Source: a virus
Taxonomy: Duplodnaviria > Heunggongvirae > Uroviricota > Caudoviricetes
Reading direction: 5' to 3' (one strand)
IMG/VR virus record: IMGVR_UViG_2663762992_000006
Length of the DNA stretch: 4,966 bases
Numbering within the stretch: position 1 is the stretch's first letter; every line of letters begins with the position of its first letter. The notes below the pieces were generated by a model that ran no database searches, was not told where the DNA came from, and saw only the letters and a list, made by a program, of their open reading frames with translations. The position numbers were made by a program, and so were the translations under genes. Of this stretch, positions 1 to 4,966 are shown piece after piece.

Positions 1-782
1 AAGGTCGTACAACGACGCTTGGCCGTGGAGGCAGCGATTATACGGCAGCCTTGCTGGCGGAGGCTTTACACGCATCTCGTGTTGATATCTGGACCGACGT
101 CCCGGGCATCTACACCACCGATCCACGCGTGGTTTCCGCAGCAAAACGCATTGATGAAATCGCGTTTGCCGAAGCGGCAGAGATGGCAACTTTTGGTGCA
201 AAAGTACTGCATCCGGCAACGTTGCTACCCGCAGTACGCAGCGATATCCCGGTCTTTGTCGGCTCCAGCAAAGACCCACGCGCAGGTGGTACGCTGGTGT
301 GCAATAAAACTGAAAATCCGCCGCTGTTCCGCGCGCTGGCGCTTCGTCGCAATCAGACTCTGCTCACTTTGCACAGCCTGAATATGCTGCATTCTCGCGG
401 TTTCCTCGCGGAAGTTTTCGGCATCCTCGCGCGGCATAATATTTCGGTGGATCTCATCACCACCTCCGAAGTGAGCGTGGCATTAACCCTTGATACCACC
501 GGTTCAACCTCCACTGGCGATACCTTGCTGACGCAATCTCTGCTGATGGAGCTGTCTGCACTATGCCGGGTAGAAGTGGAGGAAGGTCTGGCGCTGGTCG
601 CGTTGATTGGCAATGACCTGTCAAAAGCCTGCGGCGTTGGCAAAGAGGTATTCGGCGTACTGGAACCGTTCAACATTCGCATGATTTGTTACGGCGCATC
701 CAGCCATAACCTGTGCTTCCTGGTGCCAGGCGAAGATGCCGAGCAGGTGGTGCAGAAGCTGCATTTTAATTTGTTTGAGTAA
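1..782 (+). CDS. lysC: Aspartate kinase III (lysine-sensitive aspartokinase), C-terminal portion; 5' end lies outside the window, reading phase starts at nt 3, stop TAA at 780-782
   Basis: Frame-3 translation from nt 3 reads GRTTTLGRGGSDYTAALLAEALHASRVDIWTDVPGIYTTDPRVV... and ends ...GEDAEQVVQKLHFNLFE, which I recognise as the kinase core and C-terminal ACT-domain region of enterobacterial LysC. The ORF is open to the window edge. The other ORFs in the track over 19-682 are out of frame or antisense to it. Confidence 0.93.
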   Translation, partial: GRTTTLGRGGSDYTAALLAEALHASRVDIWTDVPGIYTTDPRVVSAAKRIDEIAFAEAAEMATFGAKVLHPATLLPAVRSDIPVFVGSSKDPRAGGTLVCNKTENPPLFRALALRRNQTLLTLHSLNMLHSRGFLAEVFGILARHNISVDLITTSEVSVALTLDTTGSTSTGDTLLTQSLLMELSALCRVEVEEGLALVALIGNDLSKACGVGKEVFGVLEPFNIRMICYGASSHNLCFLVPGEDAEQVVQKLHFNLFE

Positions 783-794
783 ACGATCAGTAGA

Positions 795-824
795 GGTGAA
801 TAGCGACCCACGACGCTATTCACC
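795..824. terminator. Stem-loop between convergent lysC and the Mor-like gene; possible bidirectional terminator and/or island boundary
   Basis: Perfect 11-bp inverted repeat GGTGAATAGCG (795-805) and CGCTATTCACC (814-824) around an 8-nt loop, 13 nt after the lysC stop and 13 nt before the stop of the minus-strand gene. There is no strong T-tract on either side, so the intrinsic-terminator call is tentative. Confidence 0.4.
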
Positions 825-836
825 ATGCCGGTTCAA

Positions 837-1184
837 TTACGAATTACTGCGGCGCTGTTGCTTTTCCGCATGTACGCGTTTCACTATCTTATAAATCCAT
901 TGCAGCGTCAGATTATATTTCTTCGCTAATTCGGCGTAGTTGCGCCCATCGCACTCGCTATAGATTTGGTAGTCACGCTCCGACGCCCGTCCGGAGATCC
1001 CTTTTGGGAAATAAATGCTTTGCCCGCCCCAGTTGCGCATCATTCGGTCGGCAATGGCAAAGCCCACATTTTCCGCCGATGAACTGTCGAGATTGATGCT
1101 TTCAATCAGAACTTGCGATGCATGAAAAGCCAGGTCGTTAATGATCTCCGGTGTCCGGACCATCTCTTTTGATTTTCGTATCAT
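837..1184 (-). CDS. Mor/C-family phage transcriptional activator (Mu middle/late operon regulator-like), 115 aa
   Basis: Complete ORF with ATG at 1184-1182, preceded by GGAGA (complement of 1191-1195) 7 nt upstream, and stop at 839-837. The C-terminal half carries the signature I recall for Mu Mor and C proteins: ...RNWGGQSIYFPKG... (glycine-rich turn followed by Y-[IF]-P-[KR]-G) then ...DGRNYAELAKKYNLTLQWIYKIVKR (HTH-like). Assignment is by motif recall, not search. Confidence 0.8.
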   Translation of the reverse strand: MIRKSKEMVRTPEIINDLAFHASQVLIESINLDSSSAENVGFAIADRMMRNWGGQSIYFPKGISGRASERDYQIYSECDGRNYAELAKKYNLTLQWIYKIVKRVHAEKQQRRSNS

Positions 1185-1390
1185 TTTTCATCTCCATATA
1201 TCTTGCATCCTGAATAAGACCCGATGCGTGTAAAACCACGGATATACGCTAAGCAGTTGTCATTACTGCTACTCAATACATTCAACAAACAAATAAACAA
1301 TCACCAGAAATATAAATTCTTAATATTAATGAACGCATAAATTCACTAAATAAATATATTGTTTGCGTTATGTTTCTTGTCAACAGGAGT

Positions 1391-1451
1391 ATCATTTTAC
1401 ACGATACTGTATGCACATACAGTATTATTTTTACCTGTAGTGTAAAAAGAT
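1391..1451. repeat. Imperfect 12-bp inverted repeat (11/12) flanking the LexA-box palindrome
   Basis: ATCATTTTACAC (1391-1402) pairs with the reverse complement of GTGTAAAAAGAT (1440-1451); the perfect 8-bp core is TTTTACAC / GTGTAAAA. Each arm contains a TTTACA hexamer resembling a -35 element, one on each strand. Confidence 0.5.
1405..1424. promoter_or_regulatory. Candidate LexA operator (SOS box)
   Basis: TACTGTATGCACATACAGTA matches the enterobacterial LexA consensus TACTG(TA)5CAGTA in both conserved half-sites (TACTGTAT / ATACAGTA, CTGT-N8-ACAG). It differs only at three central, weakly conserved positions and is itself a 10+10 inverted repeat with a 2-bp centre. Location is 221 bp upstream of the Mor-like start and 297 bp upstream of the holin-like start. 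Confidence 0.65.
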
Positions 1452-1720
1452 CGTTTCCCTCACAGTCGCTGACTTTCTTAAACAAACTTTAAAAATCAAA
1501 TAACTACTGACTATTCCTACGATTCACCATCATCTTTTCCCTGCATAATGACGCGCTTATTCGCGAGGTCACCTTTTGCTCTTTAATTGCTGAGTGGATT
1601 TATTAGCGGGCATGTTCATTTATAGAGAATCTATTTTTTAAAGTTATTTATTAAAGCTTTTTTCATTCTTCACTGGCGGGTTCTGGCGACACTAAACGCT
1701 CACTTATCAGGAGATACCGT

Positions 1721-2008
1721 ATGAAAAAAGTCACTCTTCCCCGGCTTTCCGGTTGGCTGGTCGCTTCCGTCGCGCTGTTTGTCGTGATCGGCTGGACCTC
1801 TTCAGCACAGATCCCGGTCGTCATTTATAAACTAAGCCTGGTTTCGCTTTCCGCGGTGCTGGGATACTGGCTCGATCGCAGTTTGTTCCCATGGGCACGG
1901 CCTGACTCTTTTAGCCCATGGAAGGAACCGCGTTGCTGCGCGGCGGCAATGATTCGCCGCGCCATCATCGTTGCCGCCGTCTGTCTTTCCGTCGCCTTAG
2001 GGCTATAG
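1721..2008 (+). CDS. Small integral membrane protein with three predicted TM segments; putative holin or lysis-associated membrane protein, 95 aa
   Basis: ATG at 1721 with AGGAGA (1709-1714) 6 nt upstream; stop TAG at 2006-2008. Hydrophobic stretches LSGWLVASVALFVVIGW, VVIYKLSLVSLSAVLGYWL and AIIVAAVCLSVALGL. It sits immediately upstream of a peptidoglycan-degrading enzyme gene. Atypical for a holin in ending inside the last hydrophobic segment with no charged C-terminal tail. Confidence 0.6.
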   Translation: MKKVTLPRLSGWLVASVALFVVIGWTSSAQIPVVIYKLSLVSLSAVLGYWLDRSLFPWARPDSFSPWKEPRCCAAAMIRRAIIVAAVCLSVALGL

Positions 2009-2010
2009 TG

Positions 2011-2616
2011 ATGTGGCTGAAATATATCGCGTCTATGATTATTTTCGTTCTTTTCCCTCTTAACGCCTCTGAACCGCCGCGAGCCTCTCTGGCATGGCGA
2101 AACGAACTAATTCGTACCGCTCGAGAAGTCTGGGGACTGAACGCCCCAGTGGCCGACTTTGCCGGGCAATTACACCAGGAGTCCGCCTGGCAGCCAATGG
2201 TACGTTCCCCCGTTGGCGCACAAGGCATGGCGCAATTTATGCCTGCCACAGCGACATGGATAAGCCTGTTGTATCCGCAGCTACGTGAAAATAAGCCCTA
2301 TAACCCAACCTGGGCGATTCGCGCACTGGTGCAATATGACCAGCATTTGTGGAAAAACATCTCAGCGAAAAATGATTGTCAGCGTATGGCGTTTACCCTA
2401 AGCGCCTATAACGGCGGTCAGGGATGGGTTAACCGGGATAAAAAACTGGCTGCATCCAAAGGGTTAGATGCCACTAGCTGGTTTGGTCATGTCGAGCGAG
2501 TCAACGCCGGGCGCAGCGCCACGAACTGGCGAGAAAATCGTCGCTATCCGAAGATGATCCTCTATCAACATGCCGCCCGCTACCTACTCTGGGGGCAGGC
2601 AAGCTGTCTTCATTAA
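2011..2616 (+). CDS. Family-1 (SLT-domain) lytic transglycosylase with N-terminal signal peptide or signal-anchor; endolysin-like, 201 aa
   Basis: I place the start at ATG 2011, 3 nt after the holin-like stop; the track ORF starts at 1918, but that upstream extension overlaps the holin gene. The N-terminus MWLKYIASMIIFVLFPLNA-SEPP looks like a Sec signal peptide. SLT motifs are present: catalytic Q-E-S (QESAWQP), GAQGMAQFMPATA, and AYNGG. Stop TAA at 2614-2616. Confidence 0.85.
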   Translation: MWLKYIASMIIFVLFPLNASEPPRASLAWRNELIRTAREVWGLNAPVADFAGQLHQESAWQPMVRSPVGAQGMAQFMPATATWISLLYPQLRENKPYNPTWAIRALVQYDQHLWKNISAKNDCQRMAFTLSAYNGGQGWVNRDKKLAASKGLDATSWFGHVERVNAGRSATNWRENRRYPKMILYQHAARYLLWGQASCLH

Positions 2617-2628
2617 TCAGAGGGGCCG

Positions 2629-2943
2629 ATGAAACTCAGTATCGATTTTTGGGAAGTGATCTCCCTTATGCTTTCCTTCGTTGGATTAATGTTTGCTGCC
2701 GGAAAATTGCTGTTAGCGCAAATTGAAAAAAGACTTAATGAGCGTTTTGAATCTCTGGAAAACGCGCGCCGGGAATCAGAAACAAGTTGGTCGAAACTGG
2801 AAAGAGAATTTCTCGAATTTCGTGCCGAGCTTCCGCTGCATTATGTCCGCAGAGAAGATTATCTTCGTGGCCAGGCAGTATTAGAAGCAAAGCTGGATGC
2901 CTTATATAGCAAAATAGAGCTATTACAACGCGGTAGCTATTAA
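2629..2943 (+). CDS. Membrane-anchored coiled-coil protein; candidate lysis accessory (i-spanin-like or Mu-type lysis-cassette protein), 104 aa
   Basis: ATG at 2629 with GAGGGG upstream. N-terminal hydrophobic helix ISLMLSFVGLMFAAGKLLLA, followed by a highly charged heptad-like region (QIEKRLNERFESLENARRESETSWSKLEREFLEFRAEL...LEAKLDALYSKIELLQ). Its position right after the transglycosylase fits a lysis cassette. No partner outer-membrane lipoprotein (o-spanin) was found. Confidence 0.6.
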   Translation: MKLSIDFWEVISLMLSFVGLMFAAGKLLLAQIEKRLNERFESLENARRESETSWSKLEREFLEFRAELPLHYVRREDYLRGQAVLEAKLDALYSKIELLQRGSY

Positions 2944-3060
2944 ATTCAATTTTTTCTCTAAAGCAGATTAAAAGATTCTCCACCTTCATTACGTCAGAAT
3001 ACATTTCAACGATAACGAAGTGAGCGTTAACGAATCAGCGATAATTAAGGAACACCCTAT

Positions 3061-3516
3061 ATGGAAATTTTATCAGTAATGAATTCTGTTGTGACCAGAT
3101 TACGTGAACAGAATCCCGAAATGGATGTATCTATTTCATCGGTTGATACCCATAAATATATTCCGCAGACGCAGCAAGTTACAGTGATTATTAATTATAG
3201 CGGTTCTCTATTTGCCATGCCTGAAAGCAGTGATGCTCTCGTGCAACAGCAAACGCTCCGCTTAACCGCCACCGTTATTGTTGGCAAAAATTGTGATGCG
3301 TTAAACGCACTGGACCGCATACGCAGCGCATTGGGTGGCCTTCAGCTTCCTGATTGCGATCGTCTTCTTTGGCTTGAAAAAGAAATTAATACGGGTGAGA
3401 GCGGCGGTTTCTGCCGCTACATCCTGGAAATGGCGACCAGCTCGCTGTTTATCGCTGAACAGGAAAACACGGATCTTCCCCTACTTACGGAAGTTAATTA
3501 CGAGGAAACTGAATGA
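3061..3516 (+). CDS. Phage tail-associated protein, likely Mu gp37-like (tail terminator / sheath completion family), 151 aa
   Basis: ATG at 3061 with AAGGAA RBS (3047-3052). Two genes upstream of the sheath gene and translationally coupled to the next ORF through an ATGA overlap at 3513-3516, which matches the Mu gpK-gp38-gpL order as I recall it. Family call rests on synteny and recollection, not measured similarity. Confidence 0.55.
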   Translation: MEILSVMNSVVTRLREQNPEMDVSISSVDTHKYIPQTQQVTVIINYSGSLFAMPESSDALVQQQTLRLTATVIVGKNCDALNALDRIRSALGGLQLPDCDRLLWLEKEINTGESGGFCRYILEMATSSLFIAEQENTDLPLLTEVNYEETE

Positions 3517-3710
3517 AATACATCTACAACGGCCCGGCAAGCGGCGTCACCCTTGCCGACGGACAAGAAATCTTATTGTGGCCGAACAGTGAAATTGATC
3601 TGCCAGAAGACAACGAGTGGGTCATGACCATGATTGCCCGCAATCACCTGACTTCTGTCATCACTCAGGAAGAACAAAATAACGGAGAGGAAATTGTACA
3701 TGGCAGCTAA
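3513..3710 (+). CDS. Small conserved phage protein immediately upstream of the sheath gene (Mu gp38-like position), 65 aa
   Basis: ATG at 3513 overlaps the upstream stop (ATGA); its own stop TAA at 3708-3710 overlaps the sheath start region. Acidic, with no TM segment. Function unknown. Confidence 0.55.
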   Translation: MKYIYNGPASGVTLADGQEILLWPNSEIDLPEDNEWVMTMIARNHLTSVITQEEQNNGEEIVHGS

Positions 3711-4966
3711 TTATCTGCACGGTGTAGAAACCATTGAAATTGAAACCGGCCCGCGTCCCGTTAAAGCGGTAAAATCCGCCGTCATCGCTTTAATCGGTAC
3801 GGCCCCCTGTGGTCCGGTAAATAAACCAACATTATGCCTTTCTGAAAGCGATGCTGCGCAGTTTGGCTCAACTCAGGCTAACTTTACGATCCCACAGGCG
3901 CTGAAGGCGATTTATGACCACGGTGCCGGTACGGTGGTGGTAATTAATGTGCTGGATCCGGTAAAACATGGACTGCATGTTGCCAATGAAACCATTACGT
4001 TCAATAGTGCCGATAAAGCTAAATTAGCTCATCCGGGAGTAAGTTCAGTAATATTAAGACCAGGTACCAGTTCCACTACGTACAAAAATACATCTTACAA
4101 TGTTAATGCCGCAGATGGCGTTATAACCCGTACCGGAACTGAAATCCCGGCAGGGGCGAAGGTTTACGCGACGTATACCTATGTTGATCCTACAAAGGTC
4201 ACCGCAGCCGATATTATCGGTGCCGTAAATACCGCAGGCGACCGCACAGGGATGAAACTCCTTCAGGACACCTATAACCTGTATGGTTTCTACGCCAAAA
4301 TCCTGCTTGCTCCCGTGTTCTGTACGCAAAAATCAGTAACTACCGAGCTGATTGCACAAGCGGAAAAACTCGGTGCGATTACCTACATTGATGCCCCGAT
4401 TGGGACGACATTCCAGCAGGTATTGGCAGGACGCAGTTCGCAAGGCGCTATCAACTTCAATACCAGCTCTGATCGTGCGCGTTTATGTTACCCACACGTC
4501 AAAGTTTACGATGGCATCACTAACCAGGAAGTTCTCGAACCGCTCTCTTCGCGCGCTGCCGGGCTACGTGCCAAAGTAGACCTCGAAAAAGGTTTCTGGT
4601 GGAGCAACTCAAACCAGGAAATTCAGGGTATTACCGGTATTGAACGTTCGCTTTCCGCAATGATTGATGATCCTCAAAGCGAAGTGAATCAGCTCAACGA
4701 AAACGGCATTACCACTATTTTCAATAGTTACGGCTCTGGTCTGCGCTTGTGGGGCAACCGCACAGCGGCATGGCCTACCGTGACCCATATGCGTAACTTT
4801 GAAAACGTCCGCCGGACAGGCGATGTAATTAATGAGTCAATCCGTTATTTCAGTCAGCAGTATATTGATATGCCGATTAATCAGGCGCTGATTGATGCCC
4901 TGACCGAATCAGGCATCATTCAGGATCAACACCGGGCCGCGGATTTCTGTGTCGTCCAACTGTTGC
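3700..4966 (+). CDS. Contractile phage tail sheath protein (Mu gpL-like myovirus sheath), N-terminal about 422 aa; 3'-truncated by window edge
   Basis: ATG at 3700 with GGAGAGG (3685-3691) upstream; I translated by hand to the window end with no stop codon. N-terminus MAANYLHGVETIEIETGPRPVKAV... and the later NSYGSGLRLWGNRTAAWPT (sheath-type G-[LV]-R-[LV]-W-G-x-R-T signature) are characteristic of phage and tailocin sheath proteins. Absent from the ORF track only because it has no in-window stop. Confidence 0.88.
   Translation, partial: MAANYLHGVETIEIETGPRPVKAVKSAVIALIGTAPCGPVNKPTLCLSESDAAQFGSTQANFTIPQALKAIYDHGAGTVVVINVLDPVKHGLHVANETITFNSADKAKLAHPGVSSVILRPGTSSTTYKNTSYNVNAADGVITRTGTEIPAGAKVYATYTYVDPTKVTAADIIGAVNTAGDRTGMKLLQDTYNLYGFYAKILLAPVFCTQKSVTTELIAQAEKLGAITYIDAPIGTTFQQVLAGRSSQGAINFNTSSDRARLCYPHVKVYDGITNQEVLEPLSSRAAGLRAKVDLEKGFWWSNSNQEIQGITGIERSLSAMIDDPQSEVNQLNENGITTIFNSYGSGLRLWGNRTAAWPTVTHMRNFENVRRTGDVINESIRYFSQQYIDMPINQALIDALTESGIIQDQHRAADFCVVQLL

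Follow-up and report, generated by a model that had tools for sequence, protein, structure and literature searches.

In the RdgA/RdgB system, a damage-sensing repressor step leads to a Mor-family activator and, through it, to lysis and phage-tail bacteriocin genes. The PrtR/PrtN system follows a similar order, with an SOS-cleavable repressor controlling a dedicated activator, which turns on a tailocin and lysis cluster. Among the classical SOS genes, single SOS boxes overlap the promoters (recA, sulA, umuDC) and one box is common to the divergent uvrA and ssb. Compound SOS operators are represented by the double overlapping boxes of the colicins, by LexA with RstR in CTXphi and by LexA with gp7 in GIL01. 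Control of pectin lyase and carotovoricin by RdgA/RdgB in Pectobacterium was reportedly described by Liu, Chatterjee and Chatterjee in 1994, a paper cited in PMC13566846. RdgA is described there as a pectin-lyase regulator, two-tier tailocin control of the PrtR/PrtN type is the topic of two articles (PMC8609362, PMC12066065), and LexA with gp7 in GIL01 is covered by another (PMC4551915).

The DNA used for this analysis (the window, 4966 nucleotides) contains, in order, the 3' end of lysC, mor on the minus strand, an intergenic region of 536 bp (34% G+C) and a holin/tail operon on the plus strand; positions 1-4912 are 100% identical to E. coli A10. A first-pass annotation of the intergenic region had proposed that nested palindromes around an SOS box form a compound operator. 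On balance, our analysis favours one LexA operator placed on a promoter hub, with the outer palindrome being no second operator. The coordinates of the features are collected in Table 1.

Table 1. Features of the window, with position, strand and basis of the assignment.
Feature	Position	Strand	Remarks
Mor/C/RdgB-family transcription activator gene (mor)	837-1184	-	115 aa; Pfam PF08765 Mor, E=6.3e-38; RefSeq: Mor family protein
Third TTTTACAC copy	1228-1235	-	about 45-50 nt upstream of the mor start codon; repeat finder I11/D4
Outer repeat, left arm ATCATTTTACAC	1391-1402	+	repeat finder I6
Candidate -10 TAAAAT of a leftward (mor-directed) promoter	1394-1399	-	assigned from sequence
Candidate -35 TTTACA of a rightward sigma-70 promoter	1396-1401	+	16-bp spacer to -10 TACAGT (1418-1423) inside the box
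Predicted LexA operator (SOS box) TACTGTATGCACATACAGTA	1405-1424	both	17/20 to the textbook LexA consensus TACTGTATATATATACAGTA
Right LexA half-site TACAGTA	1418-1424	both	common to the candidate -10s TACAGT (+) and TACTGT (-)
Outer repeat, right arm GTGTAAAAAGAT	1440-1451	+	repeat finder I6
Block C AAAAAGATCGTTTCCCTCACAG	1444-1465	+	contains GATC; fixed distance to Block A, variable distance to the LexA box
Block A GATTTTTAAAGTTTGTTTAAGAAAG (minus-strand sequence)	1473-1499	-	conserved; repeat finder I7; only secondary match of the Block B matrix
Block B TATTTTTTAAAGTTATTTATTAAAGCTTTTTTCATTCTTCAC	1632-1673	+	putative Mor-binding/upstream region of the late promoter
Candidate late-promoter -10 GACACT	1688-1693	+	nAnACT in all lineages; no good -35; followed by RBS CAGGAG
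Holin, first gene of the lysis/tail operon	1721-2008	+	Pfam Holin_2-3, 4.1e-27; RefSeq
SLT transglycosylase	2011-2616	+	Pfam SLT, 7.7e-15; RefSeq
Membrane protein	2629-2943	+	RefSeq annotation
Gp37	3061-3516	+	Pfam Gp37, 6.1e-34; RefSeq
Tail sheath	from 3700	+	RefSeq annotation

The genes of the window belong to an island between lysC and yjbD for which RefSeq annotation and Pfam matches give mor, holin, SLT, Gp37, sheath, tube, tape measure, baseplate and tail fibres. In the RefSeq annotation of the full genome, genes for a capsid, terminase, transposase, integrase or repressor are all missing from the island, and no regulator besides Mor is encoded in it; an S24 repressor of the RdgA kind was found neither between lysC and mor nor elsewhere in the island. 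The gene content is that of a putative R-type tailocin, namely a complete tail and lysis module with no capsid, packaging, replication or integration genes. The E. coli Mor protein is 49.5% identical to gp01 of BcepMu, its closest phage Mor, and about 50% identical to RdgB-like ORFs of Pectobacterium. BcepMu itself has mor closing a leftward early operon and holin and SLT lying rightward of the repressor gene. Because the set of contractile-tail genes is complete, head genes are missing and the modules are BcepMu-like, the island looks like a BcepMu-type prophage minus genes 2-20 and the head genes, i.e. a tailocin-like remnant.

Analysis of complete E. coli genomes revealed the intergenic region in 197 of 5426 (about 3.6%, or about 1 in 27); A10 and ECONIH1 are examples of strains that have the island. 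A literature search, itself of incomplete coverage, yielded no account of the E. coli island or its control region, no report of a transcription start, LexA binding or SOS induction for the island, and no report of particle production or of killing of related strains by it. Two ORFs that run across the repeat (1370-1492 on the plus strand and 1282-1485 on the minus strand) gave no Pfam match and were rejected as genes because they are not conserved in the alignments. An Rfam search of positions 780-2100 at a permissive threshold gave nothing relevant.

For the comparative analysis, relatives of the Mor protein were collected at one genome per species (74 loci), and 25 close loci from IMG/VR as well as further loci from contigs encoding near-identical proteins and from metagenomes were added. 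In total, the comparison took in about 30 orthologous intergenic regions, all distinct and all of the layout lysC / mor / holin; individual loci are given below by their L numbers. The scan of metagenomes contributed extra alleles and no new lineages.

The SOS box named in the first-pass annotation proved to be real, being the single match to CTGT-N8-ACAG in the 4966 bases of the window (0.07 expected). Its mismatches to the consensus are confined to the weakly constrained centre, and a second CTGT-N8-ACAG was not found in the E. coli region even with one mismatch allowed. CTGT and ACAG are invariant in all 15 of the 15 aligned distinct sequences. Dryocola, Phytobacter and Superficieibacter also have the box, as do about 20 loci from IMG/VR or metagenomes; its distance to the mor ATG is 219-244 nt in the box-bearing lineages and 291 nt in one lineage owing to a 61-bp insertion. 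The box is restricted to close relatives (Mor 81-100% identical) and has been lost in one clade (L082, L105, L108 and L109), and E. hormaechei is without it; lineages lacking the box have TATAAT at the equivalent place, on the same strand as the rightward promoter discussed below. In the window, the box lies about 220 nt from the mor start codon and about 296 nt from the holin start codon. Two sets of promoter elements are overlapped by the box, namely the spacer and -10 of a predicted plus-strand promoter that is conserved, and the -35 region of a possible minus-strand one. Overall, these properties suggest a single, strong and ordinary LexA operator at a promoter hub, a prediction that we hold with the same qualified preference as the reading of which it is part.

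Natural variation at the box was also observed. The centres of the box are hypervariable among natural variants. An ISL3-family element is inserted precisely at the box centre in eight genomes, and IAI39 and CE10 carry the insertion sequence ISEc53 inside the operator.

The nested arrangement described in the first-pass annotation was recovered by the repeat finder in full. The LexA palindrome consists of two 10-nt arms (1404-1413 and 1416-1425) that are 100% complementary (I9), and the imperfect outer repeat consists of two 12-nt arms that are complementary at 11 of 12 positions (92%) with a spacing of 37 nt. Each outer arm carries TTTACA, on opposite strands as had been noted (the minus-strand copy runs from 1446 to 1441). 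The symmetry centres are at 1414.5 for the LexA box and at 1421 for the outer repeat, in agreement with the earlier view that this is not a single extended palindrome. Our analysis further offers a simple reading of the 6.5-bp offset: the midpoint of the outer repeat falls on the right LexA half-site TACAGTA, and the two copies of TTTACA are each exactly 16 bp away from it.

The chance occurrence of the outer repeat was assessed using dinucleotide shuffles of the 536-bp intergenic region and, with the LexA box held fixed, shuffles of its flanks. Of the dinucleotide shuffles, 9% contained, somewhere in the region, an inverted repeat of 11/12 or better whose loop did not exceed 60 nt. A repeat of at least 11/12 straddling the fixed LexA box appeared in 0.1% of the flank shuffles, a figure that is only nominal because the straddling criterion was chosen after the repeat had been seen. 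The octamer TTTTACAC is present in three copies in the window, all of them inside the intergenic region, compared with 0.15 expected; other lineages have TTTTACGC or TTTTGCAC near the position of the third copy. The repeat finder listed 16 inverted repeats within the 536 bp. Judged by the shuffle frequencies and the three copies of TTTTACAC, the outer repeat is nominally beyond chance in the single sequence, yet it fails the test of conservation described below. Since the straddling repeat is nominally improbable (0.1%) and TTTTACAC occurs three times, the right arm may have a lineage-specific role.

Of the left arm, only nine base pairs (1394-1402, ATTTTACAC) are conserved across lineages, and they are kept at fixed spacing from the LexA box in the orthologous regions. 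The order CAyTTTACAC, 2-3 nt and box is retained in nearly all box-bearing lineages, and 0 of the 12 sites of this arm are variable among the E. coli alleles. We read ATTTTACAC as core-promoter hexamers on both strands, that is, as interdigitated promoter elements abutting the operator. The conservation of A1394, T1395 and C1400 to C1402 is broader than either hexamer.

Promoters were scored with a sigma-70 matrix of Hawley-McClure-type hexamer frequencies, and the promoter scores given here are an aid to ranking only. In a promoter scan of positions 800-2000, TTTACA-16-TACAGT was the sole consensus promoter site. It scores 8.5-9.4 bits and is the top plus-strand match in six of the seven box-bearing lineages scored; an independent scan found it again in Superficieibacter, Phytobacter and L101 (loci L009, L007 and L101, respectively). 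The final T of the -10 is missing in L097 (TACAGC) and in L098-100 (TACAGA). The distance from this promoter to holin is about 290 nt, and no conserved ORF lies in that gap. Overall, the conserved rightward promoter is probably real and repressed by LexA.

For the opposite direction, the candidate -10 TAAAAT would place the LexA box over about -18 to -37 and the A-rich stretch 1425-1435 at the position of an UP element; this leftward promoter scores 5.9-6.1 bits in Phytobacter and L086. Matrix, alignment and scan revealed no mor-directed sigma-70 promoter conserved in position across lineages, and the candidates differ from lineage to lineage. The top-scoring mor-directed candidate in E. coli is TTGACA-19-TATATT (1383 to 1353, 10.9 bits), which lies outside the operator. 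We consider the chances evenly divided as to whether a mor-directed promoter is under LexA control; the options for the hub are not mutually exclusive. The reading that we favour has several observations against it: the long distance from the rightward promoter to holin, the altered -10 in L097 and L098-100, the want of a mor-directed promoter conserved in position, the location of this best E. coli candidate outside the box, and the retention of the box without TTTACA in L098-100.

The right arm is not conserved as a repeat partner. Its outer eight bases are the edge of Block C (AAAAAGATCG...), and its inner GTGT is confined to the E. coli lineage, within which it is polymorphic. The right arm has only AAAAAGAT in common across lineages, and this because Block C, which is conserved separately, starts with it; in other lineages, insertions of 10-40 nt are found between the box and Block C. 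Outside the E. coli group, neither GTGTAAA nor TGTAAAA was found to the right of the box in any orthologue, nor anything there complementary to TTTTACAC, and the best repeats straddling the box reach at most 9/12 at unrelated positions. Within the E. coli group, the right-arm alleles are GAGTAAAAAGAT, GTATAAAAAGAT, GTGTTAAAAGAT and GTGTAAAAATAA. Two sites are variable among the aligned alleles and the alleles of L093, L094 and L139 add more. The changes (GAGT-, GTAT-, GTGTT- and -AATAA) all break pairing and none is compensated; altogether, five right-arm alleles of the E. coli group disrupt pairing without compensation.

By pair counting, 66% of cells are paired in the outer helix and 95% in the LexA helix, and the covariation of the outer helix was not above that of shuffles. 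Pair counting and the search of each orthologue for straddling repeats ruled out the outer repeat as a conserved helix. Judged by the alignments, the complementarity of the arms is not under selection, because the right arm is unconserved, the spacing is variable, the alleles that break pairing are uncompensated and there is no excess of covariation.

The exact 16-bp spacers on both sides and the shared centre of the repeat and TACAGTA (1421) could also be explained, for the E. coli lineage, by a mirror-symmetric bidirectional promoter, in which the arms would serve as -35 elements, TACAGTA as the common -10, and one LexA dimer would gate both directions. The leftward TTTACA-16-TACTGT scores 7.3 bits as against 8.6 bits for the rightward site, variants at 1441, 1442 and 1444, among them the natural alleles T1441A and G1442A, keep 4-5 of 6 matches to TTGACA (TTTACT, TTTATA, TTAACA), and the rarity of a straddling repeat among shuffles is in accordance with such a design. 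However, the TTTACA of the right arm is missing outside the E. coli group, though every lineage needs a mor promoter; no other conserved-looking element near the box is as polymorphic as the right arm; and TACTGT, the leftward -10, agrees with the consensus at just 3 of 6 positions. A mirror promoter of this kind is therefore unlikely, and the narrower proposal of a right-arm -35 restricted to the E. coli lineage is equally doubtful. The first-pass suggestion of promoters on both strands under one operator is plausible and half supported: the predicted rightward TTTACA-16-TACAGT is conserved, and its leftward mirror is limited to the E. coli lineage, where the hexamer is polymorphic.

An extension of the mirror promoter would combine it with Block A as an inverted activator site, so that LexA would gate both mor and the lysis and tail genes and Mor would feed back on itself. 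This combination is less likely still than the mirror promoter as such. If true, the switch would be bistable (all-or-none), and a minority of cells would be committed by it to suicidal release of tailocins.

Pure coincidence would require only that the T-run and ACAC beside the box happen to complement the A-run of Block C in a region of 34% G+C. The eight outer pairs are indeed a T-run against an A-run, the right arm varies freely, and the 16 inverted repeats in 536 bp, together with the finding of a repeat of equal quality somewhere in 9% of the region shuffles, also speak for coincidence. The exact mirror geometry and the frequency of straddling repeats (0.1% of shuffles) count against it, and taken as an account of its own we give coincidence a low chance, below that of either form of the mirror promoter. 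It overlaps the explanation that we favour, since both treat the complementarity as unselected.

Comparison of the intergenic regions also revealed conserved blocks to the right of the box. Block B is the most conserved intergenic stretch in all lineages that keep holin, with one of 41 sites variable among the E. coli alleles; for Blocks C and A together the figure is one of 48. Block B followed by nAnACT, with no -35, fits a late promoter of the Mor/C type. A matrix built from Block B scores 34.3 bits at Block B and 11.0 bits at Block A; the next best match is 1.9 bits and the best match in the arms of the outer repeat is -7.9 bits. Block A is possibly a second site of the same protein, facing mor, which is offered as a lead and not as a finding. 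Two further candidates were rejected. TTAAAG is separated by an equal 31 nt from GACACT in Block B and from AACGAT in inverted Block A, a match that was dropped because AACGAT is poorly conserved; and for the mor leader, where a conserved hairpin (GCACC...GGTGC) had been considered, RNAalifold gave no consensus structure.

These scores bear on the compound operator of the first-pass annotation, in which a further protein, the Mor-like activator or another repressor, would sit on the arms and cooperate or compete with LexA. In its favour are the existence of the repeat, which is nominally unlikely by chance, and the three copies of TTTTACAC in the intergenic region. Against it, the score of -7.9 bits with the matrix from the putative Mor site rejects the arms as Mor-like sites and leaves Block A as the only second site resembling Block B; the island has no further regulator gene; the pairing-breaking alleles are uncompensated, the spacing of the arms is variable and the inner right arm is lineage-specific; and a dimer site measuring 49 bp from centre to centre across the operator of another repressor would be unusual. 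In view of the unconserved right arm, the variable spacing, the uncompensated alleles and the matrix score, a compound operator or second repressor site is not supported by the sequences compared, and we regard it as very improbable.

A role of the repeat as nucleic-acid structure, i.e. a long transcript hairpin or a DNA cruciform acting as attenuator, processing site or transposon target, can be given hardly any credence: a 73-nt fold does nest both helices (-17.8 kcal/mol, z=-3.3, on the plus strand; -15.3 kcal/mol, z=-2.9, on the minus strand) and the ISL3-family insertions fall exactly at the box centre in eight genomes, but the LexA palindrome alone supplies much of the stability, the outer helix is unconserved and shows no covariation, Rfam gave no match, and neither arm lies inside the transcripts predicted from the two promoters at the box.

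Under the favoured reading of one LexA operator on a promoter hub, LexA bound to the box would occlude RNA polymerase at the abutting promoter or promoters. DNA damage would then lead to RecA-stimulated self-cleavage of LexA, and transcription would leave the hub. Mor, once made, would activate the predicted late promoter, which Block B marks and which has a -10 (GACACT) but no -35, and this promoter would in turn switch on the holin, transglycosylase and tail genes. Most likely, the locus is an SOS-gated entry to a cascade from LexA to Mor to the late promoter. Transcription from the rightward promoter would read through the Mor-dependent promoter, which counts against the cascade and makes the role of Mor less plain.

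As a regulatory device the nested palindrome is not conserved, and it is for this reason of little importance in itself. The locus looks like a compact control region wired to the host LexA, serving a BcepMu-derived tailocin in E. coli and several other Enterobacteriaceae. Its natural variants, namely the differing box centres, the clades in which the box has been swapped and the operators bearing insertion sequences, offer material on the SOS thresholds of costly lytic weapons.

Comparison with the known systems places the locus among SOS boxes on promoters and damage-inducible activator cascades of tailocins, a kind that is already well known and of which it is a further case. The box sequence resembles the recA operator. 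Like the classical SOS boxes, it is one 20-bp CTGT-N8-ACAG palindrome over a candidate -10 and spacer or a candidate -35 region in a divergent intergenic region; unlike them, it is far from both start codons (about 220 and 296 nt) and its target promoter is a predicted one. With the compound SOS operators it shares extra symmetry around the LexA box, whereas a second LexA box, a conserved second palindrome and a co-repressor gene are all missing. In common with phage Mu Mor/C and with BcepMu, the locus encodes an activator of the Mor family and has a predicted late promoter, preceded by a conserved block and devoid of a -35, and it further shares the holin, SLT and Gp37 modules with BcepMu; in contrast to BcepMu, the early genes 2-20 (including transposase and phage repressor) and the head genes are gone, and a host operator appears to replace the phage repressor. 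The two-tier logic is that of PrtR/PrtN, with the differences that PrtN is outside the Mor family and PrtR is encoded by the element, while the sensor of the E. coli island is apparently the host LexA.

The nearest characterised relative, by analogy of components and order, is RdgA/RdgB of Pectobacterium, with which the E. coli island shares a Mor-family activator that is about 50% identical. Pectobacterium has its own S24 (cI/LexA-like) repressor gene, rdgA, upstream of rdgB, a pair seen in our L029, and the promoter of rdgB (TTGACA-17-TTAAAT) is surrounded by AACAAC repeats at about 90 nt from the ATG. The E. coli island, in contrast, has no rdgA-like gene; a host LexA box is present instead, at about 220 nt upstream of mor. 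The locus would thus represent a Mor/RdgB-type activator placed under a host repressor and not under one encoded by the element.

Among eight distinct E. coli-group alleles, the four middle bases of the LexA box (window 1413-1416) were found to be polymorphic at every position, while the sequence on either side is almost invariant. Variation at 4/4 of these positions, against 64 variable sites in the 536 bp of the mor/holin intergenic region, gives a hypergeometric P of 2e-4. GCAC, ACAT, GTGC, ACAC and ACGT occur at the centre in this group, and locus L093 carries GTGT. The variable centre could reflect tuning of LexA affinity, or it could be a mutational hot spot.

The exact centre of the box (window 1411-1418) is also the insertion point of ISEc53, an ISL3-family element that bears a ClbS/DfsB-family gene (L004 1605-3502), flanked by an 8-bp target duplication, ATGCACAT. 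Eight complete E. coli genomes, among them IAI39, CE10, MS 21-1 and AR_0013, carry this insertion, as does a single metagenome contig (L146). The operator is thereby split in two, and 1.9 kb comes to lie between mor and the late operon.

Two elements lie upstream of mor on the minus strand. The sigma-70-like site is the top-scoring one in the whole intergenic region and lies immediately outside the LexA box; it is restricted to the E. coli lineage, where some alleles read TTGATA or TTGGCA. Where the window has its third copy of TTTTACAC, other lineages read TTTTACGC or TTTTGCAC at a comparable place.

Minus-strand elements upstream of mor
Feature	Window position	Strand	Remark
Third TTTTACAC copy	1228-1235	-	precedes the mor start by about 45-50 nt
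Sigma-70-like site TTGACA-19-TATATT	1353-1383	-	mor-directed; 10.9 bits

On the late-operon side of the box, the conserved stretches Block C and Block A form a module of about 55 bp (window 1444-1499) with fixed internal spacing, and a conserved GATC lies inside Block C. Read on the minus strand, Block A is the only secondary match to the matrix of Block B (window 1632-1673), the putative late-promoter upstream region. In Superficieibacter, 61 bp are inserted close to mor (L008, about 2890-2830), and a GC-rich palindromic insert separates the LexA box from Block B in L009, L084 and L111. On the holin-directed strand this insert has a weak hairpin of terminator-like form (L009 2564..2549), which, if functional, would halt a rightward transcript ahead of the late promoter.

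Strain A10 is identical to the window over positions 1-4912. The final stretch of some 56 bases (4911-4966) matches not tail sheath but rlmG, a core gene located elsewhere in nearly all E. coli; the window is thus chimeric or concatenated at the 3' end. Two genes on the opposite strand, one with a nucleotidyltransferase domain and one of the slipin family, lie at the island's distal end (L001 36491-38415) and may be cargo or defence genes.

Some loci are without the LexA box. In two from Salmonella (L080/L081) and two of E. coli type (L138/L142), all that is left is lysC, mor and some 115-200 bp of intergenic sequence; unrelated genes, namely a hexapeptide-repeat (Hexapep) protein gene in Salmonella and, in the E. 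coli type, a neighbourhood with a glycosyltransferase, replace the box and the entire tail cluster. In a single clade of E. hormaechei and relatives (L082, L105, L108 and L109) the box is absent from an unchanged island layout. At its place (aligned window about 1370-1430) the holin-directed strand has a sequence containing TATAAT, and a conserved palindrome, TTCATTGAA, lies about 21 bp upstream. This clade may have exchanged the operator for that of a different regulator. In both its Block A and its Block B, TAAAG is changed to GAAA(T/A).
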